A stretch of 64,000 nucleotides of DNA from Pseudomonadales bacterium (GTDB lineage: Bacteria; Pseudomonadota; Gammaproteobacteria; Pseudomonadales; JBECKS01), in contig JBECKS010000130.1 in NCBI GenBank assembly GCA_040235395.1, positions 3,011 through 67,010 of the forward strand, in the 5' to 3' direction. Below the pieces are notes generated by a model. The model saw only the letters and a program-made list of their open reading frames with translations, ran no database searches and was not told the origin of the DNA. The position numbers and the translations under genes are program-made. This document shows, piece after piece, positions 2,130 to 53,720 of the stretch. How positions within the stretch are numbered: position 1 is the stretch's first letter; every line of letters starts with the position of its first letter.

Positions 2130-2482
2130 TATAGAATTCCAATGTAGTTAGAGGACATGTAGCAGGATATAAAACCTGTGGATTATTTTCGAGTCTCTAC
2201 TGCCTTTAATGGGTAAAACCTGCAATCTATTATGGGCTCTAATTCCTTGATTTTTAAAAACAAGTGGAGTAACTTGACCCATTACTCACAAAAAGAACAA
2301 CAACCATAAATAAAAGCTTTTTCCTATACTTAGCTAGTCTTTGTTGTCTTGGAAAACAAGGGGTTAGACCCAATGTGCGTCAATCCCGGTAGACTGAAAA
2401 TTAACGGATACAGAATCCAGATAGTTCCTGTTAAAGAGGAATATTCTCAGGCTTGTATAGGGTTGTACTAATGGAGCAAATC

Positions 2483-3646
2483 ATGTCACGCAATGTTTTG
2501 GTGAAAGTATTATTAGCCTTGGCTTTAATGCCGAGTCTGAGTGCGTGCCTTGAAAAGGACTATGACAGCTACGCTCTCTACGTTAAAGCTCGAGGCCTTT
2601 CGAATACTGAAACCATTATTGTTTCCAATGGTTCAAATCTTCAAATAACTGGTACCAGCGACCTATCCTGGACAGAACTTCAAAAATTCAAACGCACCTA
2701 CCGAGAAGACAAAACGAATTACAGCATCAGGATTGTAAGGCAGCCTTCAAGCTCAAATAAAGTCTGCCGCGTTCTAAATCCAGTAGGGCAAGCTAGCACA
2801 TTTGATAGCATTATCAGAATAGAATGCGGCTATCCCGTCGTTATTGCTGACACTGGCTTAACCATGACAACCAATAATGGGCTAATGGTAAGCAACTATG
2901 TGGAAGAAGTTGCACTAAACAGCTCTCGATCCTTGACGAGCATGTTAAACAATGAAGTAATCCAAGATCCCAACTCGATTGACCCAAATGATCAGGTATT
3001 ACGCGTAACGCCAATTTCAACAATTGGAGCCGTTAGCTTTCAGAAACTCTACATGGAAAATGAAACTGTCACGATAAGTTTCTCAAGTGTAGAACAGGGT
3101 TGCGAAATTCCTGGTGCGAACAACAACTCTGGGCTTGTATTCAGCTATCCCAGCGCCGGAACATTCATGAACACTGTTCAGACAATCCCCCTGGATCAGG
3201 ACTGGATTCTTGACGGTACAGATTACAGTAACGGAAGAAGTTGTAAGGATTTCACAAGACCAGAATACTTCCTGACTTACGATGAACTGGAAAACCCAGG
3301 TTTGCTTGCCAACTACACTGCAGAATGTTATCCAGCACCACCTGTTGATATCAGTTGCGGGTTTGCTCTCAAGGCAAGAGTTCGTGGATTGAGCTATAGC
3401 TCGGGGGAGTTTATTCGCTTAACCGCAACAAGAATGCCTTCCACGACAAGTCATACACTCGACTTAACAACAAGCGCCGCGAAGACTTTTAACCTTGCTT
3501 TTCAAGATAATGAAACCTTCACAATTGATATCGATGGTGGGAGCAACCTTGGAGGAAAGGTTTGCACTTTTAGTTCTACTGGAACAAGCCAGGGTTCTGG
3601 AACAATCAATAATAGCAATACAGTCGACACTATTACCTGTAATTAG
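2483..3646 (+). CDS. putative lipoprotein built from repeated Cys-terminated modules
   Basis: The ORF track starts at a TTG (2453). I prefer ATG 2483, which is preceded by GGAG and gives MSRNVLVKVLLALALMPSLSAC (lipobox LSAC). N- and C-terminal ~95-aa segments resemble each other (YVKARGLS...IRIEC versus LKARVRGLS...DTITC). Confidence 0.5.
   Translation: MSRNVLVKVLLALALMPSLSACLEKDYDSYALYVKARGLSNTETIIVSNGSNLQITGTSDLSWTELQKFKRTYREDKTNYSIRIVRQPSSSNKVCRVLNPVGQASTFDSIIRIECGYPVVIADTGLTMTTNNGLMVSNYVEEVALNSSRSLTSMLNNEVIQDPNSIDPNDQVLRVTPISTIGAVSFQKLYMENETVTISFSSVEQGCEIPGANNNSGLVFSYPSAGTFMNTVQTIPLDQDWILDGTDYSNGRSCKDFTRPEYFLTYDELENPGLLANYTAECYPAPPVDISCGFALKARVRGLSYSSGEFIRLTATRMPSTTSHTLDLTTSAAKTFNLAFQDNETFTIDIDGGSNLGGKVCTFSSTGTSQGSGTINNSNTVDTITCN

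Positions 3647-6750: not shown

Positions 6751-6751
<1 letters not shown>
6125..6751 (-). CDS. hisG: ATP phosphoribosyltransferase, short form
   Basis: 208 aa with no C-terminal regulatory domain, so a HisZ partner is expected elsewhere. Its start overlaps the murA stop by 1 nt (TAATG). Confidence 0.93.
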
Positions 6752-8052
<1,301 letters not shown>

Positions 8053-8375: not shown

Positions 8376-9044
8376 CTAATTCTTGGCTGTTGCCGCAGGT
8401 TTATCATCCACTTCAATCTTGGCATTCCAGTTAGCTATCAGGTTATCCATATTCTCTCCATTCTTCATCATGGTCTCAGAAAAGTGACTATTGTAGGCCT
8501 TAGCCACATTGACACCATTAAGAATCACATTAACTACTTTCCAGGAACCATCAGCATTTTTCCTCATAGTGAAGCTCAAAGGAAAAATGGTTCCTTCAGC
8601 AGTTTTAACTTCCATCTTCACCGCCTGCATCGACTTACCAGCATTCTCACCGTCATCTGGTAATACTGTAATTTCCTGACTATCAAAAATGGATAGCCCT
8701 GTTGAATAGGTATCGACAAGACTTTCCTTAAAAACCTGAATGAACTTCTCTCTCTGCTCAGGCGTTGCAGCCAAGTAGTATTTCTTGCCCATGACAAACT
8801 TCGAAAGCGTTTCAAAATCCACAGCAGGGACCATGTATTCATTAACAATCTTTTTATAGCCTTCGGGATTCTGTTTAAGGCTCTCTGACTGGGCATTCAT
8901 TGCGCCAACCAAACCATCCGCTGTTTTCTTGACGAAAGCATGGGGAGAATCAGCATCATCTGCAGCATGAGCGTTAAGTATCAGGGTTGAAAAAACCGCT
9001 ATCAAAAGATAACGCAAACCTGCTTCTAGCTTTTGTTTCAACAT
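8376..9044 (-). CDS. mlaC: phospholipid-binding periplasmic protein MlaC (Ttg2D family)
   Basis: 222 aa. Signal peptide ...LILNAHA. Family-typical VDFETLSKFVMGKKYYLAATPEQREKF and WKVVNVILNGVNV segments. Confidence 0.85.
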   Translation of the reverse strand: MLKQKLEAGLRYLLIAVFSTLILNAHAADDADSPHAFVKKTADGLVGAMNAQSESLKQNPEGYKKIVNEYMVPAVDFETLSKFVMGKKYYLAATPEQREKFIQVFKESLVDTYSTGLSIFDSQEITVLPDDGENAGKSMQAVKMEVKTAEGTIFPLSFTMRKNADGSWKVVNVILNGVNVAKAYNSHFSETMMKNGENMDNLIANWNAKIEVDDKPAATAKN

Positions 9045-9406
9045 AAATCTTCCTCTTGAACTGTTCCAGTTGAACCATTTTTCTGAGTCTGTCTATCTCA
9101 ATCAGGAACCACCCTAACTGAAATAACTTCTTCAAACATTAGGGTTAGTTTCAGGGGATTTAACTGAATTAATCATTAATCCACCTGAAAAATCTCTCAA
9201 ATACCCAAAATATACGATGGAAAGGATATCCCCACGAAGCCCTAAGTATCTGGCTTAGGGCAGGATTCTTGGCTCACCAAACGGGGGCAACTATAACATA
9301 ATCCGATAGCATACCGTATAGCAAAATAGCCTTAACCCGCTATCATAACGGGCAACACAAAAACCTCCTCAACCCTTTGTCTTAGAGGAAAATATTAAGT
9401 TTTATC

Positions 9407-9964
9407 ATGGCCACGCAGAACGATAAAAAATCAACACTAGCTAGAAAAATTGAACTCGTCATCTTTGATGTAGATGGCGTAATGAGCGATGGAAAAATTA
9501 CCTACACTAACGAAGGTATGGAAATAAAATCCTTCAACGTCAAAGATGGATTAGGCATTAAACTTCTACAACGGTCTGGCATTAAAACAGCCATCATTAC
9601 TGGCAGAAAATCTGACATTGTTGCCTTGCGCGCAAAAGAACTTGGTATCCACCACCTCTTACAGCAACGTGAAGACAAACTTTCAGCCAGTCTTGAGCTA
9701 AGTAAACAACTGGGTATCCCCACTGAAAAGATTGCTTACATGGGAGATGATCTTCCCGACCTCTCAGCCATCAAATATCTAGGCTTTGGTATCACTGTGG
9801 CAAATGCTCACCACCTTGTAAAAGAACAAGCTGATTATATTTGCCAGAAAGATGGTGGCGATGGTGCAGTCAGAGAGGCCTGTGAATATATTCTTGAGGC
9901 TCAGAATAAACTCGACGGTATCTTAAAGTCTTACATGAATACAGAAGCAAGTGACAACTCATGA
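9407..9964 (+). CDS. kdsC: 3-deoxy-D-manno-octulosonate-8-phosphate phosphatase
   Basis: 185 aa HAD fold. Motifs VIFDVDGVMSDGKI and GDDLPD. Stop overlaps the next start (ATGA at 9961-9964). Confidence 0.92.
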   Translation: MATQNDKKSTLARKIELVIFDVDGVMSDGKITYTNEGMEIKSFNVKDGLGIKLLQRSGIKTAIITGRKSDIVALRAKELGIHHLLQQREDKLSASLELSKQLGIPTEKIAYMGDDLPDLSAIKYLGFGITVANAHHLVKEQADYICQKDGGDGAVREACEYILEAQNKLDGILKSYMNTEASDNS

Positions 9965-10968
9965 AGTCACAAACACCCTTCATTCTAAGTATGATTACCT
10001 TGATGATTCTGGGCTCCATTCTCTTTAACAGCGAAAGCGAAAGCATTACCCGTCTGTTTTCTGTGTTACCAGGAAAAAAAGTAAAAGAAAAAACAGAACT
10101 GATGGATTTCAGGATAAACAGCTTTGAAACTACAAACTACGGAGATGAGGGCATACTTGAGTCAAAACTTTTTGCCAGGGAATTATCATCCTTTGAAAAT
10201 AATACCCGAACTGAAATGATAGCTCCGAAAATCACTTTTTTTTCAAAAGAGTCCCCAAAAAGCCCTTGGGAGCTAAGTTCCAACACCGCACAAAGCAAAA
10301 CACCTCACACAAAAATTCTTTTCAATGACAATGTCATTCTTAAGAAACTAGTGATAGCAGAGAAAGACTTCCCCCTTGAAATCCTTACGAGTGAAATCAT
10401 TATCGACTCAGAGAAAAAACTTGCTGAAACAGAACAAAGTGTTGAAATCGTATCAGGAAGTAATCAAACAACAGGGACAGGTTTGCTTGTCAATCTAGAA
10501 CAGAACACCTTAAAGCTGTTGAAAGATATTAATAGCCAGTACCAACGCAAACAGGAAGGCCCCAAATCCTTGACGAAAGTTAAGTCAAATAGCTTCTTTC
10601 TGGATAATGGCACTCGCAAAGCCACTTATACGGGTCAAGTTATCTTTACTCGAGGCAACATCACGATTAAGGCAGATAGCATGGAAGTCATCCAAAATGA
10701 AAATGGCGAGCGTCATGCATTTGCTTATGGCAATCCTAGCTATTTCATTCAGCAATCCGCTGTAGACAACAAAGCTATTCACGCGCAAGCCAAACGCTTC
10801 GAATACAGCAGTGCTACACAGATTCTAAAAATGTTTGATCAGGCAAAACTGGAGCAGAACAATGCGGTCGTGGAAGGCGACTACTTGTATTATGATACCC
10901 GCACTGAAAATATCGGCGCGGAATCTGCGCCAGATAGTCGCGTTAAAATGGTTCTTCCCGTCAACTGA
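9961..10968 (+). CDS. lptC/lptA: LPS export protein, in-frame LptC-LptA fusion
   Basis: One uninterrupted 335-aa ORF. Residues 1-~194 have a TM anchor ([15 protein letters not shown]) and LptC-like strands. Example: [23 protein letters not shown] versus remembered E. coli GLKMRGNLRSKNAELIEKVRTSY. Residues ~207-335 match mature LptA: [23 protein letters not shown] versus VTFTGNVIVTQGTIKINADKVVV. Further matches are [10 protein letters not shown] versus GYGKPATFYQ and RVKMVLP versus RVTTVLVP. No stop codon or second signal peptide lies between the two parts. Confidence 0.8.
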
Positions 10969-10979
10969 GCAATACCATC

Positions 10980-11708
10980 GTGAAAAAAGTTCTCAAAGCT
11001 CAAAACATCGCTAAAAGTTTCAAAGGCAGGCAGGTTGTCCATGACATATCCATTTCCGTTGAGCAGTCACAAATAGTAGGCTTGCTGGGTCCTAACGGTG
11101 CAGGCAAAACTACTAGCTTTGACATGATTGTTGGACAGATTCCCTGTGACAAAGGCCAGATACTTCTCGATGAGGAAGATATAACACGACTTCCCATGCA
11201 CCAGCGCGCCCGCAGGGGTATTAGTTACCTACCACAGCAGGCATCCATTTTCAGAAAACTAACGGTCAGGGAGAACATCCTGTCTATTCTGGAAATCAGA
11301 AAGGAACTGGACAAAAAGCTAAGGGAAAACCTTCTTCACGACCTTATCGAGGAGTTCCAGATAGGTCATGTTGCCGACAGCCTTGGCATGAGTCTTTCCG
11401 GTGGTGAACGTCGAAGGGTTGAAATCGCAAGAGCCTTGGCCATTGAACCCGCCTTTATTCTTCTAGATGAACCATTTGCTGGCGTTGATCCAATTTCAGT
11501 AAACGAAATAAAGAAAATCATCCTTCAACTAAAAGAACGAAACATTGGTGTTCTGATTACCGATCATGACGTCAGGGAAACACTCGACATCTGTGAGAAG
11601 TCTTACATCGTCAATGCGGGGAAAGTCATTGAGGAAGGCGATGCAAAAACCATCTTGTCCAACCCTCTCGTGAAAGAAGTCTATCTCGGTCAACAGTTCC
11701 AGCTCTAA
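10980..11708 (+). CDS. lptB: LPS export ABC transporter ATPase
   Basis: 242 aa with a GTG start. Walker [10 protein letters not shown], signature LSGGERRR, Walker B ILLDEP. Confidence 0.95.
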
Positions 11709-13379: not shown

Positions 13380-13489
13380 AACAAATTCATTTCAGGAATA
13401 GCGAAGCCCCGCCAACAGTGGCAAAATGCAGTCTTCGTTTTTGAGGCAGAATTCCATTTTTATTGAGACTAGCGAAGTAATTGCTTGTT

Positions 13490-18131: not shown

Positions 18132-21100
18132 TTATTCACTTTTCTGTTCTTCGCCAGTCAAGGCTTCATCAATTCCCTTGCCAATTTTTTTGAAAATTTT
18201 CAACGTTAGAATATCAGTCACGATACCTAAGTTAAAAATTCCCAACGCTTTGAATTTCTTGGATTTGATATCAAGCTCCACGATGCTTCCATCAAAGATT
18301 TCCAACCCCGCTTTGCCTGACATCGCATCGTAATCAAAATCCATCGGCGAACCAGGCCATTTAATATCGATTGTCATCAAACCCGAACTTTTTGAAGAAG
18401 GTTTAAGGTTTAAAGCACTGAACAGTTTTGTTGCAGCTGCCGTTCTTAAATGCCCCTTGAAATGCGTCACCGATTTATCTTCACTGTAATTCCAACGCCC
18501 AGTTCCGTTGATAGTCATCAAACCATAATTCAATTGATGCACATTAAAATCCATCCCATGATCATCTGGCATTAAATCAATCCGCCAACGCCCATTCTTC
18601 AAGGAACCCAATACCACTGTAGCAATATCAATCTGAGCAAACATAAAATCATCAGGCACATAAGGTTCTGTCACTTTTTTAACAGCCACTTTTTTGCTGT
18701 ATTCCCCACGCCCTGAATCATCCTTAACGGTTACCTCTTGATATTCAATGCCCTCTAACTGCTCCTCAGTTATTTTCAAATAATCCAGTTTAGCTACGAT
18801 TGGATTCTTTTTTGAAATCAATTCTTCATCTGGTACCCATATCACACCTTTTAATACTGAATTTTCAACATCTACACGCCACCTGAAATATTCTCTTGTT
18901 ATAAAAGCTTTCAGATTTTCCAGTTCCTGATCAAAACCTGTAAAACGATCAACCGTCACATCAACCCTATTGATAATGGCTGCCGTATCGTCTTCCTCTG
19001 TATTCATGGCAGTGGCTTTAGTAGGTGAAGGATTTGTAGACGAAGGATTGGTAGATGAAGGCTGTGCAGACGAAGACTCTGTACTCTGCTCTCCCACATC
19101 ATCCATCAGGTTTTTTTCGATATAGTCTACCCATTCATCGAAATCCACATGATCTATTCTTCCAGTTACAACCAACCCTGAATCCTGAGGCAAAGGATAA
19201 AAACCATCTCCAAAATGAATTCGACCTCGATCAAAATCACCGTTTTCGCCAACGGTTTTAGTAACAACACCTACACGTTTTCCATAATCCATGCGATAAA
19301 TTAACCAATCAGGAAATACATCAAGCTGAAGCGTACTCGCCACTGGAACATTTTCTTTTTTAGCGTAAGTTCCTGGCAAAACAATGGCGGTATTTTTCAA
19401 ATCCGTGTTTACTTCTACCCTGACAATCGACTCCTTGCCACGATAAGTATCACCAGTTAAAGGTAGTAATTCAGAGCTTTCATTACTCGCAGCAGGCACG
19501 CCAAGTTCTGGAAGCAAATCGTTTACCGCTTCCAAATCACCAATCGATATAGTCACATCAAAATCTGCAACACCGCTCAAATTATCGAACAACCAGAAGC
19601 TTTGCCAGCTTTTAAGATCATCAGCACTGAGCTTCCCCTTACCAGAAATCTGAAACACTTGTTCTCCTTCACTTTCATGTGTCTCTATTTTTCCCTCTAT
19701 CGGCTTATCAAAAAAGAGCGCACTTAAATGCTCTGTGCTCAGTCCCTCTTTTAACGAATAGTGCAGGTCGGTACTCAGCGACTTCACACCCAACCTGACA
19801 TCAGGAATAGCGAGTAAGGCATCTTCTGTTTTGAGGTTGACTTCTATCACCTCCTGCTTTTGACCAGGCTCATCTGAAAGCGGCAAATCAAGCATGACAT
19901 CACTTTGCTGACTGCCTGTTAATACCCAATCTTCAATAACGTGACCAAGAATTTCTTTCAATTCACTTTGCAAGAAAAGTTTCTGAACATCTCCTAAACT
20001 TCCAGATGACTGAGCGGATATCTGAACTCGAGGAAGGTTTTCCTTTAGATAAGATTCAATTTCAACTTGCCCATTAAACAACCGAGAATCAAACATTTTT
20101 GCTGATGATACTTTAGCCCTGACTCTATCGTTATGAACTAAAACATTTGCTTCTACTTCGTCTACCTGCGGCCAACGTCCAGGTAAATAATCAAGACTAG
20201 CATTATGTACATCGATATCGGTATCGAGCGTTGCAAAGGTATAAGGTTCATAGCGCTTCAAAAAAGCAAACAGAAAAATATCTCCTTCAGCTTTACCGTG
20301 CTTCAGAAAATCATCAATCCAAACAAGCAAAGACTCAGGTAATTTTCCAAGAAAAAACATCTTGATGTTTTCAAGCCCCATGGGTTGGATATGCGCTTGC
20401 AAGGACCAGGCAGGTATTTCTTTTTCACCTGTTTGATAATTTCTAGCTGGAATGTTTGCCTTAAACCGTCCATGTGCTGAAATATTATTAGCATGTAGTT
20501 CTGCTATATCACTGGAGATAACAATATCACCAGGAATCATTTCCAACAGCAGATTGGCAGAGAGTGAAGTGATATTCAGGTTTTCCCTGAAAAGATAGAA
20601 ATTTTCTTCGAGCAATGCGTCAAAGGTCTGTAGTTCCACACCCAGAACCTTAGGAGCATATTCAGCATAAAAATCTATGCCATGGACACCTGGCACTTTG
20701 TCAAAGGCGGAGACACCAATATCCTTAATGTAAGCACTGGCATACACTTCTCTTTCGGCATTAAATGGATCATAGGCAAAAACCTGAACTTGCTGAACTG
20801 AACCTTCAGGTGCAGCATCAATAATTTTTTTCTTTTTACTTTCCTCAAGAGGAATATAGGGTATTAATTTCCCAACCAAAGAAACAGGAATTCGATTAAT
20901 CAATAAGCGAGCGAAATCCCTGTTTTCCGGTTTTGATGAATCATCTTCATCAGAGAAATAGAAGGCATTCCATTCCCTTGCAAGCGGTTGACTTAAGTGT
21001 TCTGAGCGCCCTTGCTCAAAAATAATTGCCAGATTTCGCCATTGAAAATCACCCCAGGCAAGTTCAAAGTCCTTGAGTTTCAACTTGAACGGGATATGCG

Positions 21101-22211
21101 GCAGCAATTTCACATATTCAGATCTTTCTTTACTATTGAGAAGTTTCGATAAAGAAATTTCACTTTTTAACTCTAACTTGAAAGCAAGCTCATCAATATT
21201 GATATCTTCCACTTCAGCACTTTTCTGCTGCTGTTTTTCAACTGTCAAAGATTCTTCCTGCTTTAACTGATATGCAAAAAGAATATCCTTAATCGAAAAA
21301 TCAAGTTTTATGCTTTCAAAAACACCTCTGTTTATCTCTATCCAGCTTTTCAAAGCAACTCTGGCATTTTTTGGCTGAACAATCTGATGCTTCGGCCATA
21401 ATTCATGCTCAAATAAATATGTTAGTTCATTGCGATCAATAGAAAAAAAGCTTCTTGCAGAGAACCCATCAAGATCAAGAGGGTTTCCCTGAAAAACACT
21501 GACGAAATCTATCTTTCTTGGTTTTTCTTCATTTGCAGCCACCAACAACCTGGATTCAAGCTGATGATTAAACCATTCGTTATCTAGGGTAAGAGATGGA
21601 ATTTCTATCCGATAGCTACCATATTTTCCTGCATTCATGCCAAGCTTCATATTCCTGACAAAAATTTGTTCGGCAGTAAAAATATAATTATCCAGAATGC
21701 GTTTCAGTTTTTCCTTACTATCGGAGCCCTGAGGTGTTTCAGGTAAGGGTAAGCCATGAACAAGAAGCTTACCCGTTTCATCATCAAATACTAAGTCACT
21801 AGAAATGCCAGAGATGAGAACTTTTTTTATGCGTGGGGAAAAAGTAAATAAGCTTTCAATCAAGTCAAGCTCAACAGCCAGATGTTCAACTCGCACACCT
21901 TGCTCTTCCAGAGAGCTTTCATCATTTATCTTTTGGACTTCATGATAAGCTTTCCCTTTAAGGCTAATATCACGAAACTCTATAATCGGACTAACTAATA
22001 ACCATCTTCCACTCATTTCTCCAATTTCAAGTTGGAAATCTGTTTTGTCAGCGACTTGTTGCTCAATGACTTCCTTATATTGAGCTACATCTTTAAGTGC
22101 AACACGAAACCCAACCGAAATCATCGCCCACGCCACTAACAGGTATAAAAGCAGATACCTCAAACGTCTAGCCGGATTGGGCGCTGGGGAAAACTGTTCT
22201 TGTTCAGACAT
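18132..22211 (-). CDS. yhdP: AsmA-like envelope protein YhdP
   Basis: 1359 aa with a single N-terminal TM (LRYLLLYLLVAWAMISVGF). Size and position downstream of mreBCD are typical of YhdP. Confidence 0.8.
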   Translation of the reverse strand: MSEQEQFSPAPNPARRLRYLLLYLLVAWAMISVGFRVALKDVAQYKEVIEQQVADKTDFQLEIGEMSGRWLLVSPIIEFRDISLKGKAYHEVQKINDESSLEEQGVRVEHLAVELDLIESLFTFSPRIKKVLISGISSDLVFDDETGKLLVHGLPLPETPQGSDSKEKLKRILDNYIFTAEQIFVRNMKLGMNAGKYGSYRIEIPSLTLDNEWFNHQLESRLLVAANEEKPRKIDFVSVFQGNPLDLDGFSARSFFSIDRNELTYLFEHELWPKHQIVQPKNARVALKSWIEINRGVFESIKLDFSIKDILFAYQLKQEESLTVEKQQQKSAEVEDINIDELAFKLELKSEISLSKLLNSKERSEYVKLLPHIPFKLKLKDFELAWGDFQWRNLAIIFEQGRSEHLSQPLAREWNAFYFSDEDDSSKPENRDFARLLINRIPVSLVGKLIPYIPLEESKKKKIIDAAPEGSVQQVQVFAYDPFNAEREVYASAYIKDIGVSAFDKVPGVHGIDFYAEYAPKVLGVELQTFDALLEENFYLFRENLNITSLSANLLLEMIPGDIVISSDIAELHANNISAHGRFKANIPARNYQTGEKEIPAWSLQAHIQPMGLENIKMFFLGKLPESLLVWIDDFLKHGKAEGDIFLFAFLKRYEPYTFATLDTDIDVHNASLDYLPGRWPQVDEVEANVLVHNDRVRAKVSSAKMFDSRLFNGQVEIESYLKENLPRVQISAQSSGSLGDVQKLFLQSELKEILGHVIEDWVLTGSQQSDVMLDLPLSDEPGQKQEVIEVNLKTEDALLAIPDVRLGVKSLSTDLHYSLKEGLSTEHLSALFFDKPIEGKIETHESEGEQVFQISGKGKLSADDLKSWQSFWLFDNLSGVADFDVTISIGDLEAVNDLLPELGVPAASNESSELLPLTGDTYRGKESIVRVEVNTDLKNTAIVLPGTYAKKENVPVASTLQLDVFPDWLIYRMDYGKRVGVVTKTVGENGDFDRGRIHFGDGFYPLPQDSGLVVTGRIDHVDFDEWVDYIEKNLMDDVGEQSTESSSAQPSSTNPSSTNPSPTKATAMNTEEDDTAAIINRVDVTVDRFTGFDQELENLKAFITREYFRWRVDVENSVLKGVIWVPDEELISKKNPIVAKLDYLKITEEQLEGIEYQEVTVKDDSGRGEYSKKVAVKKVTEPYVPDDFMFAQIDIATVVLGSLKNGRWRIDLMPDDHGMDFNVHQLNYGLMTINGTGRWNYSEDKSVTHFKGHLRTAAATKLFSALNLKPSSKSSGLMTIDIKWPGSPMDFDYDAMSGKAGLEIFDGSIVELDIKSKKFKALGIFNLGIVTDILTLKIFKKIGKGIDEALTGEEQKSE
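19021..19080 (-). repeat. four imperfect tandem 15-nt repeats inside yhdP, encoding (N/Q)PSST units
   Basis: Plus-strand units are gtaggtgaaggattt / gtagacgaaggattg / gtagatgaaggctgt / gcagacgaagactct. They translate on the minus strand as ...QPSSTNPSSTNPSPT... Confidence 0.8.
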
Positions 22212-28622: not shown

Positions 28623-29411
28623 CTACTTTCTTACTTTCCCCGTTGCGCTATACCAATTACTGTTAGGGAATTTTTTCTGCCTGGCAGCAATTTTCTTATT
28701 AATGGCTACTTCAAGCTTTAGCGCTTCAACATCTTCTGACCCCTTAAGGTAGGGAAGTGCGGGCTCCTCAATTAACAATAAAGTTGCTTTGGCATCACTT
28801 AATGGCAACTGTGCTACTAAAGCCTTGATGACTGTGGACGAACCCATAACATCAAAATCTTTCTCCCTGAGTGTTCCACCTTTACTTACATAATCCCTCT
28901 TCGGCTTAATAAGACGCTTGATGGTTGATAGCGTCAGTTTACGCGTATCTTCATCATCAACATTAAGAAAAACCAGAAGCTTGGGCACATCTTCAATGTC
29001 GTGCATGTTCTTGAATACATCTTTAGTTAGCCCCCTGGCCTCTTTAACAACATAAGGCTTGTCACTCAATTTCACGAAATACAAGAGGTTATTCATATCA
29101 TCAACACCCAGTGATAGTTCCAGTTTTTCTAGATGGGCCTTGAACTTTTCCTTATCAAGCTTTGACTGATTGAAGACACTCTGTTGTAGATAACTAAAGG
29201 CAAGAAACATAGTAGCCTGATTATCCTTACTATATTTTTCAGTTAAAGCTATACAAGCCTCATACTTATCATCTTCAAACAACCTTTTTGCTTGAGATGT
29301 CCATGTAGCAGCTTGTACTGAAGATGCAAATAGCATCACAAATGCTAATGTAAAAACCTGGCGGAATATCGTTGTTAATTGATGATTAACTATTGATTTA
29401 TTTTTGTTCAT
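28623..29411 (-). CDS. hypothetical periplasmic/secreted protein
   Basis: 262 aa. Signal peptide ...FVMLFASSVQA. The rest looks largely helical. No family recognised. Confidence 0.5.
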   Translation of the reverse strand: MNKNKSIVNHQLTTIFRQVFTLAFVMLFASSVQAATWTSQAKRLFEDDKYEACIALTEKYSKDNQATMFLAFSYLQQSVFNQSKLDKEKFKAHLEKLELSLGVDDMNNLLYFVKLSDKPYVVKEARGLTKDVFKNMHDIEDVPKLLVFLNVDDEDTRKLTLSTIKRLIKPKRDYVSKGGTLREKDFDVMGSSTVIKALVAQLPLSDAKATLLLIEEPALPYLKGSEDVEALKLEVAINKKIAARQKKFPNSNWYSATGKVRK

Positions 29412-32593: not shown

Positions 32594-34471
32594 ATGTTGT
32601 CTGGAACCAGTCAATTTGTTCGAGCTACGTTGTTAGCATTTGCTTCACTGCTAATGCTAGTAAATTCACCAGCTTATGCCCGCTTTGGTGATGGCCTTGA
32701 AGCTGAAGAAATGGAGGCATTGAAGAAGGCCTGGGATTTGGATCCTGGTGCAATCGTTAACAATAACAAGGTGCTGAAAAAACTTTCAGCAGACCAAATC
32801 TCTGAATTAATCGAATACAAAGATACTTCCCACTATAGCTTCTTACACGTTGTTGTGGTTAAAGGTGAAGAACTCGGTAATGGTGCCTTAGGAAAACAGA
32901 ATTACAAACTATCCATCATGACGCGCATTGGAAACCGACTGGAACCAATCCCTTTCCAGATAGATGAAGTGGATTTATCAGGTCTAGCCTATATTCCAGG
33001 TCTTAAAAAACGGGATTATGCAATTGACGGTACTGAAAAGGTTTTCGATAAACAGGACGAAATAGCTTTCATGTATCGCGATGCAGGCTTGGAAAAATAT
33101 CAGGCAGGCAAAACCTTGTTACCCAGAGGAAAGGTGCTAAAAGAAATTGTGCTTACCTTTCAAGACCGAAAGCCCAGATACGCTTACCTTGTCGAGGATA
33201 ACAACAAAAGAAACACTGCTAATTATGTCAACATGGACATCGCCACAGGGAATTTCGACTCCACTTATTACAACATGAGCTGGGATCCCAACAACTTTTC
33301 ACAGATTCGTAATGTTATTCCCAAAGTTGGACCGGAACAGGGTAAAAATGTGCTGGACAACATTTACTTTGAGGTAAGCACTGGAATATTTAACAAGAAC
33401 GTTCGTTTCGGATTGAACTCCAAAAAACATATTTTTGCTGAGATCATTGGCATCAAACAAGGCCCAATCAGGGTTAACGCCATGGTAAAAGGAAGAGTCA
33501 AGTATGTTGGCATACCCTCCATGCCTTATTACGTGAACATGGTTTTCAGTGAACAAAGTATAAGCTTCAGAAGCCGTACAACATTGGATGGTTATAAATA
33601 CGCAAAATACGCAGCTGCCATTTTAAAAGATCCTGGAATTTACGTGAGCATGGACTTCCATAATATTGACGGCGCTCACATTAATTTCCATTCCATAGCT
33701 GATTCCAATGAGTTGCCAACAGTGGATGGGAAAATGTCTGCAATTGAGCACCGTATTAACGAAGAGAGACTGCCTGGAAACTGGTTCTGGATCGACAGTG
33801 GTCACGGCTGGAACATCTATTTTTCTAATAACTGGCCCATCATAGAAGGAGGTCTCTTCGACGCTTTCTTGGCGGGCATGTCCTTCCACATGGTGTATGA
33901 AGACGATATTAGCAAAACTACAGAATATGAACGCTTCCCTGGTGGCGAACCGAGAATAGGTGTTGAAGGGCGAGGGATTCCGCAGGTAGCAATGGAATTG
34001 ATAAGCTCCATTAGCGGTATCCCCTTTAGCGATGTTCCTTCTATGGGCGGTCTTGTTGATTTTATGATTGAAGAGGGTGACAAAGGGGATCTTAATAAAT
34101 TAAACAAGATTGTTGCAGAAGTGCTCGTTGAACAGAGGGAAATGGGTAAAATCAAAAACAGCAAAGAGCTAGCTGATGCATTTTTGGCAGACTTCAATTT
34201 AGTAGGTGTTAGAAGTCCAAATAGGCCTAAGTTGAATCAGGCGTTTCGTACTACTATCGAGAAGCTGGATAGATTTGAGAATTTTAATGTAGGTCAGGCA
34301 GCAAAGGATTTCAAAGCAGCAAGTAAAGCAATTGGTCTTGATCTGGAACTGATTCATTATGCCCCCAGAGACAATGTGCTCTGGTTTCCGGACTCAATGG
34401 GCGATGGAGGCCCGGATGGTTTCAGGATAGAAGTTCAGGAGCCTCCTAAGTTTAAAATTAACAACATCTAG
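32594..34471 (+). CDS. large hypothetical secreted protein
   Basis: 625 aa. Signal peptide ...LLMLVNSPAYA. No recognisable domain or motif. Followed by a strong terminator. Confidence 0.55.
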   Translation: MLSGTSQFVRATLLAFASLLMLVNSPAYARFGDGLEAEEMEALKKAWDLDPGAIVNNNKVLKKLSADQISELIEYKDTSHYSFLHVVVVKGEELGNGALGKQNYKLSIMTRIGNRLEPIPFQIDEVDLSGLAYIPGLKKRDYAIDGTEKVFDKQDEIAFMYRDAGLEKYQAGKTLLPRGKVLKEIVLTFQDRKPRYAYLVEDNNKRNTANYVNMDIATGNFDSTYYNMSWDPNNFSQIRNVIPKVGPEQGKNVLDNIYFEVSTGIFNKNVRFGLNSKKHIFAEIIGIKQGPIRVNAMVKGRVKYVGIPSMPYYVNMVFSEQSISFRSRTTLDGYKYAKYAAAILKDPGIYVSMDFHNIDGAHINFHSIADSNELPTVDGKMSAIEHRINEERLPGNWFWIDSGHGWNIYFSNNWPIIEGGLFDAFLAGMSFHMVYEDDISKTTEYERFPGGEPRIGVEGRGIPQVAMELISSISGIPFSDVPSMGGLVDFMIEEGDKGDLNKLNKIVAEVLVEQREMGKIKNSKELADAFLADFNLVGVRSPNRPKLNQAFRTTIEKLDRFENFNVGQAAKDFKAASKAIGLDLELIHYAPRDNVLWFPDSMGDGGPDGFRIEVQEPPKFKINNI

Positions 34472-34556: not shown

Positions 34557-35582
34557 CTACTTATCTCTTTTTCGTTTTAAAGGAACTGCTGTAAGCAGAA
34601 GTAATAGAATGGACAATGGAAAACGCCCTTCTGGACAGCTTCCCCCTGGTTTAATAGCGTTTATAGGGCTAACGTGATTTGCCGCCGTTTGGGTATAAAT
34701 TAAATCACCATTTACTAAATTGGTGGCTGGAACACCAAAACCTGTGCTGTTGATAGAAAGATTGGTAATTCCCTGGTCAGGCACCAAGGTCATATCAATA
34801 TACATGGAGTAATCTGTACTGCTGCCACCTAGTCTGGGTCTAAAATCCATCTGAATCTGAATAGCACCACCACCCAAGTCTGTTAAAAGAATACTATCCA
34901 CGTTCCAGTAAAGTGGTCTTGGCTGCCCACCAACAAGGGCCAAACCTGATCCATGTTGCCCACCATTGACAAAAGCATCCCTCAAATCTGAATTCTTGTT
35001 CTTGCACTCAATCACATTACCATTGTTGGTTGGCTCACCTAAATTTTCAGTTAAATCTTCAAGCAAAACCAAACCAGTTCGCTCAACACGCCCTCTACCG
35101 GTATCCTGACAACTATTTTGATCTACTGGATAGCCACTGACATAAAAACCCATGAAGTCCATCCATTCCACACGGCTTCTAGTTTCAAACTTCAACAGAA
35201 CATCATTTAAGCCCATCCAGTGTTCAAGATAGATGCCATAGAGTGACAAGGAGTCTTCATAGTTTCCGAAATAAAGAGTCAGCTCATCCCCAAACACAAT
35301 AGGGTTTAATTTAAGACAGCCTCCACCAATCGTTTCCTTTTCTCCAACGGTAGCTACAACAGGTTTGGTACCACCAAAATTAAACGTGTAATCAGCAAGG
35401 TCATAATCCCATGTATTATTACTAGCAATAGGAAGCAATCTGGATAAATCCAGATCAAGCACCTGATCATTTGCAGGAGTAATAAGGTCAACGCTAGTGG
35501 TGATATTTACCGCGTGTGCCATGCCTGTGGAGGCCACAAGAACCACGCCAAACATTGCTTTCAAATGCCTATACATCTTCAC
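34557..35582 (-). CDS. hypothetical secreted protein with a C-terminal motif/TM/basic-cluster tail
   Basis: 341 aa. Signal peptide ...VVLVASTGMAHA. The C-terminus is ...KPGGSCPEGRFPLSILLLLLTAVPLKRKRDK. Confidence 0.55.
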   Translation of the reverse strand: MKMYRHLKAMFGVVLVASTGMAHAVNITTSVDLITPANDQVLDLDLSRLLPIASNNTWDYDLADYTFNFGGTKPVVATVGEKETIGGGCLKLNPIVFGDELTLYFGNYEDSLSLYGIYLEHWMGLNDVLLKFETRSRVEWMDFMGFYVSGYPVDQNSCQDTGRGRVERTGLVLLEDLTENLGEPTNNGNVIECKNKNSDLRDAFVNGGQHGSGLALVGGQPRPLYWNVDSILLTDLGGGAIQIQMDFRPRLGGSSTDYSMYIDMTLVPDQGITNLSINSTGFGVPATNLVNGDLIYTQTAANHVSPINAIKPGGSCPEGRFPLSILLLLLTAVPLKRKRDK

Positions 35583-53252: not shown

Positions 53253-53609
53253 TTACTTTTTAATCGGTTTACGAGGACCTTTACGCGTTCTCGCATTTGT
53301 TTTGCTGCGTTGTCCTCTTACAGGAAGACTATGGCGATGCCTTAGACCTCTATAAGTTTTTAAGTCCATCAAACGCTTGATATTCATTGAAACCTCACGG
53401 CGAAGGTCTCCTTCCACTACATAATTGGCAATTTCTGAACGTAGCTTTTCTAACTCTGCTTCAGATAAATCTGAAATTTTTCTCTCACTCTCTATACCTG
53501 TAACCTGGCAGATTTTCTGTGCCGTTGTACGACCGATACCATATATATAAGTAAGCGCTACATCTGTATGCTTTTTATCAGGAACGTTTACACCTGCAAT
53601 ACGAGCCAT
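53253..53609 (-). CDS. rpsM: 30S ribosomal protein S13
   Basis: 118 aa. [10 protein letters not shown]. Confidence 0.97.
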
Positions 53610-53720
53610 TGAATTCTCCGATTTTGCTCTTTGTTACTCAGTTAATCCGCTAGATCCAGAACCAAAAGGGGCGCAAGAATAGCGGTAACAATACTAAAAA
53701 TCAATTACAAGGAAGCTTGA

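Follow-up and report, generated by a model that had tools for sequence, protein, structure and literature searches.

In Escherichia coli K-12 the lipopolysaccharide (LPS) bridge components LptC and LptA are encoded by separate genes that overlap by 32 nucleotides (nt), within a region ordered murA-ibaG-mlaBCDEF / yrbG-kdsD-kdsC-lptC-lptA-lptB-rpoN-hpf-ptsN. A Ki of about 1.8 µM has been reported for LptAm-LptC (PMC10208570), monomeric LptA suffices in vivo (PMC5575297), and how many LptA copies a bridge contains is recognised as unsettled (PMC7237710, PMC5575297, PMC10863985). Modelling of a bridge with one LptA gives about 185 Å between the centres of the inner and outer membranes, and about 35 Å more for each added unit (bioRxiv 10.1101/2023.04.28.538765). 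The set of components can also be altered, both genetically, as in E. coli suppressors of an lptC deletion (LptF mutants) that work with a six-protein Lpt bridge (PMC9972910), and by design, as in an engineered LptC-LptA fusion that was built because free LptA oligomerises, and that makes a stable complex with LptB2FG and, in a reaction dependent on ATP, passes LPS to LptD in vitro (Nat Commun 2025, PMC12065857). Since this construct works in vitro, the feasibility of such a fusion is known. Here we describe lptCA, an open reading frame (ORF) that encodes LptC and LptA as one protein in an uncultured marine-type gammaproteobacterium. It lies in a 64,000-nt stretch of DNA from a Pseudomonadales bacterium (contig JBECKS010000130.1 of assembly GCA_040235395.1), the whole of which we call the window.

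The lptCA gene spans positions 9961..10968 of the forward strand and consists of an ATG start, 335 codons and a stop, its start codon overlapping the stop codon of the upstream kdsC as ATGA; fused orthologues are present in the related loci L001, L002, L003 and L004. Reading from the N-terminus and on the same strand, the product comprises a putative transmembrane anchor equivalent to the LptC helix (residues 5-23, 9973..10029), an LptC β-jellyroll (residues about 45-194, 10093..10542), a hydrophilic linker (residues 195-206, 10543..10578) and an LptA β-jellyroll that is complete from first to last strand (residues 207-335, 10579..10965). The preliminary description of this DNA had read the single 335-residue ORF as a membrane-anchored LptC joined through a short linker to a mature-type LptA, and that reading is borne out by profile matches, structure prediction, comparative genomics and selection analysis.

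Searches with profile hidden Markov models (HMMs) gave two domain matches on the product that do not overlap. Pfam places LptC (PF06835) at residues 14-194 (E 2.3e-31, 109.2 bits against a cut-off of 21) and LptD_N/OstA (PF03968) at residues 206-316 (E 1.3e-25, 90.3 bits against 20.4), and the NCBIfam equivalog models concur, TIGR04409 for LptC scoring 113.5 bits (cut-off 38) and TIGR03002 for LptA 115.2 bits (cut-off 71.7) over residues 205-332. The C-terminal third is therefore a bona fide LptA domain. Comparison with the Protein Data Bank by phmmer aligns residues 205-332 to Pseudomonas aeruginosa LptH (4uu4) and to E. coli LptA (2r19 residues 12-138), in each case from the first β-strand, and residues 31-195 to LptC (9doq_C). 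Residues 207-332 are 31% identical to residues 38-164 of E. coli K-12 LptA, an alignment that begins about 10 residues past the LptA signal-peptide cleavage site. The enterobacterial LptC equivalog PRK10893 stays under its cut-off (25 versus 230), and the N-terminal domain is a divergent member of LptC, as is usual for this family. Although the product contains an LptA domain, it does not qualify as a canonical LptA protein.

Structure prediction by AlphaFold2 (AF2), run on a 27-sequence alignment of fused proteins, returned a model of the lptCA product with a mean predicted local distance difference test score (pLDDT) of 90.4 and a predicted template modelling score (pTM) of 0.82. In this model a helix (residues 5-23) and a poorly defined stalk (24-42) are followed by an all-β domain (48-194), an ordered connection (195-204, pLDDT about 89-93) and a second all-β domain (205-331), and because the pTM reaches 0.82 for a two-domain chain, the relative arrangement of the two domains is confidently predicted. 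Foldseek comparisons place the C-terminal half with LptA and LptH structures (template modelling score 0.84-0.91, root-mean-square deviation 1.2-2.5 Å) and the N-terminal half with the LptC structures 3my2 and 4b54 (0.87-0.89), the latter half, helix included, superposing on full-length LptC chains of LptB2FGC complexes (6mit_C and 6mjp_C). Conservation within the family climbs toward the C-terminus, from 0.50 in the LptC domain and 0.63 in the LptA domain to 0.85-0.93 in the last LptA strands, which makes the free C-terminal edge of LptA, the expected dock for LptD, the most constrained part of the protein. A cleavable N-terminal signal peptide in place of the membrane anchor was also considered and is disfavoured by a hydrophobic stretch of 16-18 residues, by the AF2 helix at residues 5-23 and by the fact that family members share no conserved AXA motif; on sequence and model together, an uncleaved anchor is favoured.

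The reading frame is open throughout lptCA, with zero stop codons between the LptC and LptA parts. The Kyte-Doolittle maximum over 15 residues is -0.19 at the junction, compared with 2.47 in the N-terminal transmembrane segment, and therefore no signal peptide is present there. In keeping with this, we found no start-codon context, hydrophobic segment or signal peptide ahead of the LptA domain, which runs on in frame from LptC. Both the absence of a signal peptide or stop before the LptA part and a linker of 12 residues at nt 10543-10578 had been proposed beforehand; the first agrees with the open frame and the junction hydropathy, and the second coincides exactly with the Pfam and sequence boundaries. 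Internal translation initiation as a source of separate LptA was rejected, given that such an LptA would be without a signal peptide and hence cytoplasmic.

To place lptCA among its relatives we drew on several collections. A word-indexed protein search yielded two more two-domain proteins, P0002 (77% identity) and P0003 (44% identity), whose contigs come from the Logan assembly of SRR22388005 and from Joint Genome Institute (JGI) metagenome 3300041081, respectively. Both contigs have kdsC and lptB flanking the fused gene, and the longer JGI contig also carries murA, bolA and mlaC upstream of it; the JGI annotation of P0003 is plain LptA. The gene call for P0002 (325 residues, contig L002) misses the first 10 codons; from an in-frame ATG situated 30 nt upstream (L002 837-866), translation gives MKSQRPFILS..., as at the N-terminus of the window protein, and a true product of 335 residues. 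A scan of species-representative genomes with a 10-sequence alignment located the fused gene in two metagenome-assembled genomes (MAGs) labelled Pseudomonadales and in no others, an earlier scan with a 3-sequence alignment having returned zero matches. One of the two, OZ245031.1, is a complete 3.2-Mb MAG chromosome with a fused ORF of 342 residues, and the other, CAZKYI010000010.1, encodes a fused ORF of 340 residues. Besides the window, the fusion is thus present in four independent assemblies, with kdsC on one side and lptB on the other wherever the contig includes the flank. When 1.84 billion cluster representatives were searched exhaustively with a profile, P0002-P0010 were recovered as full-length two-domain proteins (E 1e-62 to 1e-188, 30-77% identity to the window protein), and in neighbour-joining (NJ) trees of both domains a single fused clade unites ten clusters at 50% identity or less. 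The survey of related genomes that the preliminary description had called for accordingly uncovers a fused clade, together with more distant fused clusters discussed below, and the architecture is not unique to the window genome.

Ratios of nonsynonymous to synonymous substitution (dN/dS) were computed by the Nei-Gojobori method between the window lptCA and its 77%-identical orthologue, a comparison in which dS is near saturation and the nonsynonymous proportion (pN) lies far below the synonymous one (pS) everywhere. The values of 0.074 for the LptC domain and 0.084 for the LptA domain point to purifying selection on both halves of the fusion. As a separate observation, the lptCA protein evolves far faster than its neighbours, its identity to the orthologues of L003 and L004 being 36-38%, versus 89-90% for MurA (window 6751-8043) and about 82.5% for LptB across these pairs.

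The closest free-standing LptA among the 1.84 billion representatives, P0012 (176 residues), is 42% identical to window residues 198-333 and gives an indication of how the fusion came about. Metagenome contig scans for P0012 and its relatives gave no matches, and its context was obtained through a homologous-protein search, which led to a 31-kb contig (L005; Logan SRR26541453) whose genes, starting at hisC and ending at that for the CN hydrolase, are ordered as in the window. On this contig lptC (224 residues, P0029) and lptA (176 residues, P0012) are separate genes 7 nt apart, and a typical signal peptide of about 30 residues (MPLINSIKLQKMVHVTVYFFCLVYTLSAYS) stands at the N-terminus of P0012. 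MurA and LptB of L005 are 85% and 81% identical to those of the window, the corresponding figures for the fused loci being 89-95% and 82-96%, and P0029 and P0012 branch in the NJ trees of their respective domains as the outgroups closest to the fused clade. From these sequence comparisons the L005 arrangement would represent the ancestral state. The LptC of L005 ends in ...NSTYQSL-stop, and the junction stretch of the window aligns with QENNKLPIHIKAESF of mature P0012, so that the linker, by its alignment with the unfused sister proteins, is probably the former flexible N-terminal tail of mature LptA. We envisage an ancestor in which lptC lay next to lptA and a single deletion of roughly 115 nt would have joined the two, removing the last codons of lptC and its stop, the short spacer and about 33 codons of the LptA signal peptide, after which the last strand of LptC would continue through the former N-terminal tail of mature LptA to the first LptA strand. 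Because lptA is essential and normally single-copy, the deletion had to give a working protein at once.

These comparisons bear on whether the fused ORF is real. The window is a single contig, probably of a MAG, in which an assembly error or a sequencing indel near nt 10540-10580 might have merged two adjacent genes. What separates the fused from the unfused arrangement, however, is a deletion of about 115 nt that takes the whole LptA signal peptide and not a 1-nt indel; the junction, which was checked in sister genomes for a stop or frameshift, is open in them, as it is in four independent assemblies and ten diverged clusters, and purifying selection is seen on both sides of it. A merger of this kind is scarcely credible. 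It might also be supposed that an architecture so unusual marks a decaying locus, the non-functional remnant of a lineage that is losing or replacing LPS transport, and beyond the architecture itself we see little to commend the idea: dN/dS is about 0.08 in both domains, every strand of both jellyrolls is kept and confidently modelled, kdsC and lptB are intact on either side, and the fusion has been kept across a clade at 30-77% identity. We regard the probability of decay as negligible. Both explanations are excluded by the combination of five independent assemblies, the depth of the clade and the purifying selection seen in each half.

Taking the sequence comparisons and predicted models together, we consider that lptCA is a genuine, functional gene fusion, with a probability of roughly 85%. 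Some points weigh against this conclusion. BLASTP of the lptCA product against E. coli LptC gave no alignment, and because E. coli LptC is undetectable in this way the LptC assignment draws on HMMs, fold and gene position. The head-to-tail register of the two jellyrolls and a continuous groove between them are likewise suggested by the model, and are read only from pTM and pLDDT. As for function, the support comes from sequence and predicted models, with analogy from the literature. Finally, there are alternatives that accept the gene as real and dispute what becomes of its product or what accompanies it.

One such alternative is that the fusion is a delivery device, in which the transmembrane helix exports the LptA domain and a periplasmic protease then cuts the linker, so that the freed LptA could oligomerise. 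The linker is the least conserved segment of lptCA (conservation 0.30) and the most relaxed (dN/dS 0.25 over 12 codons, against the 77%-identical orthologue), it is hydrophilic, and the sequence data are compatible with processing. On the other hand, no conserved cleavage motif is present, and both the sequence and the length of the linker vary freely (8-19 residues within the family and 3-36 overall), some members having linkers too short for easy access. The AF2 model shows it at a pLDDT of about 90, packed against the domains and not as a disordered loop, and the engineered fusion is active uncleaved (PMC12065857). We therefore think a cleaved precursor improbable, and prefer an intact, anchored LptC-LptA protein.

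How such an intact fusion might work can be sketched from the established E. coli pathway, on which the following steps are modelled. The LptC transmembrane helix would insert the product, which would stay anchored in the inner membrane, and since this helix delivers the product the LptA domain would no longer need a signal peptide of its own. Docking on LptB2FG would involve the helix together with the LptC jellyroll's N-terminal edge, LPS would be driven through an unbroken hydrophobic groove, first in the LptC jellyroll and next in that of LptA, and the C-terminal edge of the LptA domain would dock on the N-terminal jellyroll of LptD. By analogy, the LptC part would thus associate with LptB2FG and receive LPS, and homology and the engineered fusion suggest that the LptA domain would bind LPS and bridge LptC to LptD. 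The tether would turn a weak, micromolar LptC-LptA contact into an intramolecular and permanent one, couple the synthesis of the two domains 1:1, leave the docking of the LptA edge on LptD as the one intermolecular step in building the bridge, and prevent the loss or self-polymerisation of LptA.

Whether the tether also fixes the bridge at one LptA per LptB2FGC, as the preliminary description proposed, would depend on no free lptA lying elsewhere in the genome, and the search for one covered the 64-kb window. With a family-specific HMM in all six frames, no second LptC-like or LptA-like ORF was found in the window. A functional fusion could be accompanied by a free LptA elsewhere in the genome, additional units of which could insert between the tethered LptA domain and LptD and leave the bridge variable in length; this possibility is compatible with a functional fusion and contradicts a stoichiometry fixed at one LptA. 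It draws some strength from the 64-kb reach of the search, and from the fact that the C-terminal edge of the fused LptA is the edge that binds the N-terminal edge of the next LptA in E. coli fibres (PMC7237710). Against it, no second LptA-like or LptC-like ORF occurs in the flanks of L001 and L003-L004 either, and the nearest free LptA, P0012, sits in the orthologous operon of the unfused sister lineage and is not a paralogue. Given also the essential and normally single-copy nature of lptA, we judge a free copy elsewhere in the window genome unlikely, and its absence likely. Extended to the fused lineages as a whole, we lean slightly toward the view that they lack any free LptA, and that the periplasm is spanned in them by exactly one jellyroll each of LptC and LptA, joined in a single anchored polypeptide.

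The fusion is not confined to the clade of the window. Among the 150 best representatives, 28 have the order LptC then LptA; all of these that have a complete N-terminus carry an N-terminal hydrophobic helix, and each of the 28 has a hydrophilic linker of 3-36 residues. Pfam confirmed both domains in all 27 fused representatives scanned. At least 27 clusters at 50% identity are fused, at least 17 of them distant from the window clade; they span two or more groups that lie very far apart, and a profile search with the 27-sequence alignment of fused proteins returned 4 proteins. The distant fused protein P0037 (20% identity) is present in two samples, the longer contig having the order lptCA-lptB-hpf-npr without rpoN, and the AF2 model of its clade also consists of two jellyrolls (pLDDT 88.9, pTM 0.78). 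In the distant fused lineage L006 (1047-2367), lptB is followed by hpf and npr, with no rpoN. In the LptA-domain tree the fused proteins fall into four groups, the LptC-domain tree being less resolved; these are NJ trees, too crude for counting fusion events. The fusion is therefore rare but recurrent, and probably arose more than once. The representative library also holds other tandem arrangements of these domains, namely P0015 (320 residues), with a transmembrane helix and two tandem LptC-like domains, and P0022 (311 residues), with a signal peptide and two tandem LptA domains, in effect a covalent LptA dimer.

Turning to the neighbourhood, lptCA is preceded by kdsC (9407..9964, forward strand; Pfam Hydrolase_3/HAD), encoding 3-deoxy-D-manno-octulosonate (KDO)-8-phosphate phosphatase, and followed by lptB (10980..11708, forward strand; Pfam ABC_tran), encoding the ATPase of the LptB2FG transporter, each in the position that it holds in E. 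coli. The window LptB is 81-96% identical to the LptB that follows lptCA or lptA in L001-L005. On the forward strand the order continues as kdsC, lptCA, lptB, rpoN, ptsN, rapZ, npr, mgtE and darP, and upstream, on the reverse strand, lie a hisC-like aminotransferase gene, hisD, hisG, murA, a BolA/IbaG-like gene and mlaC. Compared with the gene order of E. coli K-12, the fused ORF fills exactly the slot of lptC plus lptA. None of lptF, lptG and lptD lies within the window.

Other departures from the E. coli order were also seen. The window has neither yrbG nor kdsD upstream of kdsC (9045-9406), and rpoN and ptsN are not separated by hpf (13380-13480). The mlaC gene stands alone at 8376-9044 (reverse strand), with the bolA/ibaG-like gene (or murA) on one side and the divergent kdsC on the other, and does likewise in L001 (2015-2668) and L005 (7750-8442); its E. 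coli neighbours mlaF, mlaE, mlaD and mlaB are not adjacent to it in the window or in related loci. Some 7 kb downstream of the lpt genes, and followed by mreBCD, is a gene for a 1359-residue protein of the YhdP family (18132-22211, reverse strand; Pfam PF13116, E 6e-107), YhdP being another envelope-spanning lipid transporter. Elsewhere in the window six ORFs of 186-625 residues are without a Pfam match at E<=1e-5 (274-1569, 1569-2129, 2453-3646, 28623-29411, 32594-34471 and 34557-35582), and the sole Rfam match is the Alpha operon ribosome-binding site (RF00140, 40.5 bits, 53577-53672, reverse strand), which marks the rpsM-rpoA ribosomal protein operon.

These findings concern a rearrangement of known parts and not a new mechanism, and a specialist would not be surprised by a fusion of interacting neighbours. 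The clade nevertheless offers a naturally evolved minimal bridge with an unfused sister for comparison, which bears on the question of LptA stoichiometry, and it could show in a natural setting whether cells can do without LptA oligomerisation and without a soluble pool of LptA. The lptCA linker might provide a ready-made, selection-tested design for stabilising LptB2FGC-A complexes in structural work. There is a bearing on antibiotics as well, in that derivatives of thanatin act by detaching LptA both from LptC and from further LptA units, and an LptC-LptA interface held by a tether should be much harder for them to disrupt. If the fused lineages do lack free LptA, they would be a natural proof that a one-LptA bridge suffices for life, the bridge would have a fixed, non-adjustable length that constrains envelope width at transport sites, and the LptC-LptA interface would be immune to thanatin-like peptides that target the N-terminal strand of LptA.

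The preliminary description also suggested that this architecture was uncharacterised. In the literature we found no description of a natural LptC-LptA fusion, nor any paper on the sample accessions, and to that extent the statement stands; for the covalent arrangement as such it does not, an engineered LptC-LptA fusion already having been published (PMC12065857). What is new is the natural and selected covalent arrangement, its parts, interface and mechanism being already known. With LptC (b3199) and LptA (b3200) of E. coli, and with LptC and LptH of P. aeruginosa, lptCA shares the operon slot kdsC-[lptC lptA]-lptB-rpoN, the domain families, the folds and the LptC transmembrane anchor. It differs from them in being one polypeptide, in that the LptA domain would be membrane-tethered and not soluble and lacks a cleavable signal peptide, in that the LptC-LptA contact would be intramolecular, and in that separate regulation of lptA and lptC is impossible.

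The engineered fusion has the same covalent LptC-to-LptA link and is a direct functional precedent. In contrast to that man-made protein, which was built from enterobacterial components, lptCA is natural, fixed in a clade and kept there by selection, and its linker probably derives from the N-terminal tail of mature LptA. Nearest to hand is the unfused sister contig L005, which has an identical gene order and differs in having two genes and an LptA signal peptide. Like LptD, LptF and LptG, lptCA carries a bridge jellyroll within a membrane-anchored polypeptide, PF03968 itself spanning both LptA and the N-terminal domain of LptD; whereas those proteins combine one jellyroll with a barrel or transmembrane domain, lptCA has two bridge jellyrolls in series behind a single transmembrane helix. 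In common with the six-protein bridge of the E. coli suppressors (PMC9972910), it illustrates that the count of separate bridge components can vary, both in evolution and genetically, but where that bridge has lost a component, lptCA keeps both and joins them.

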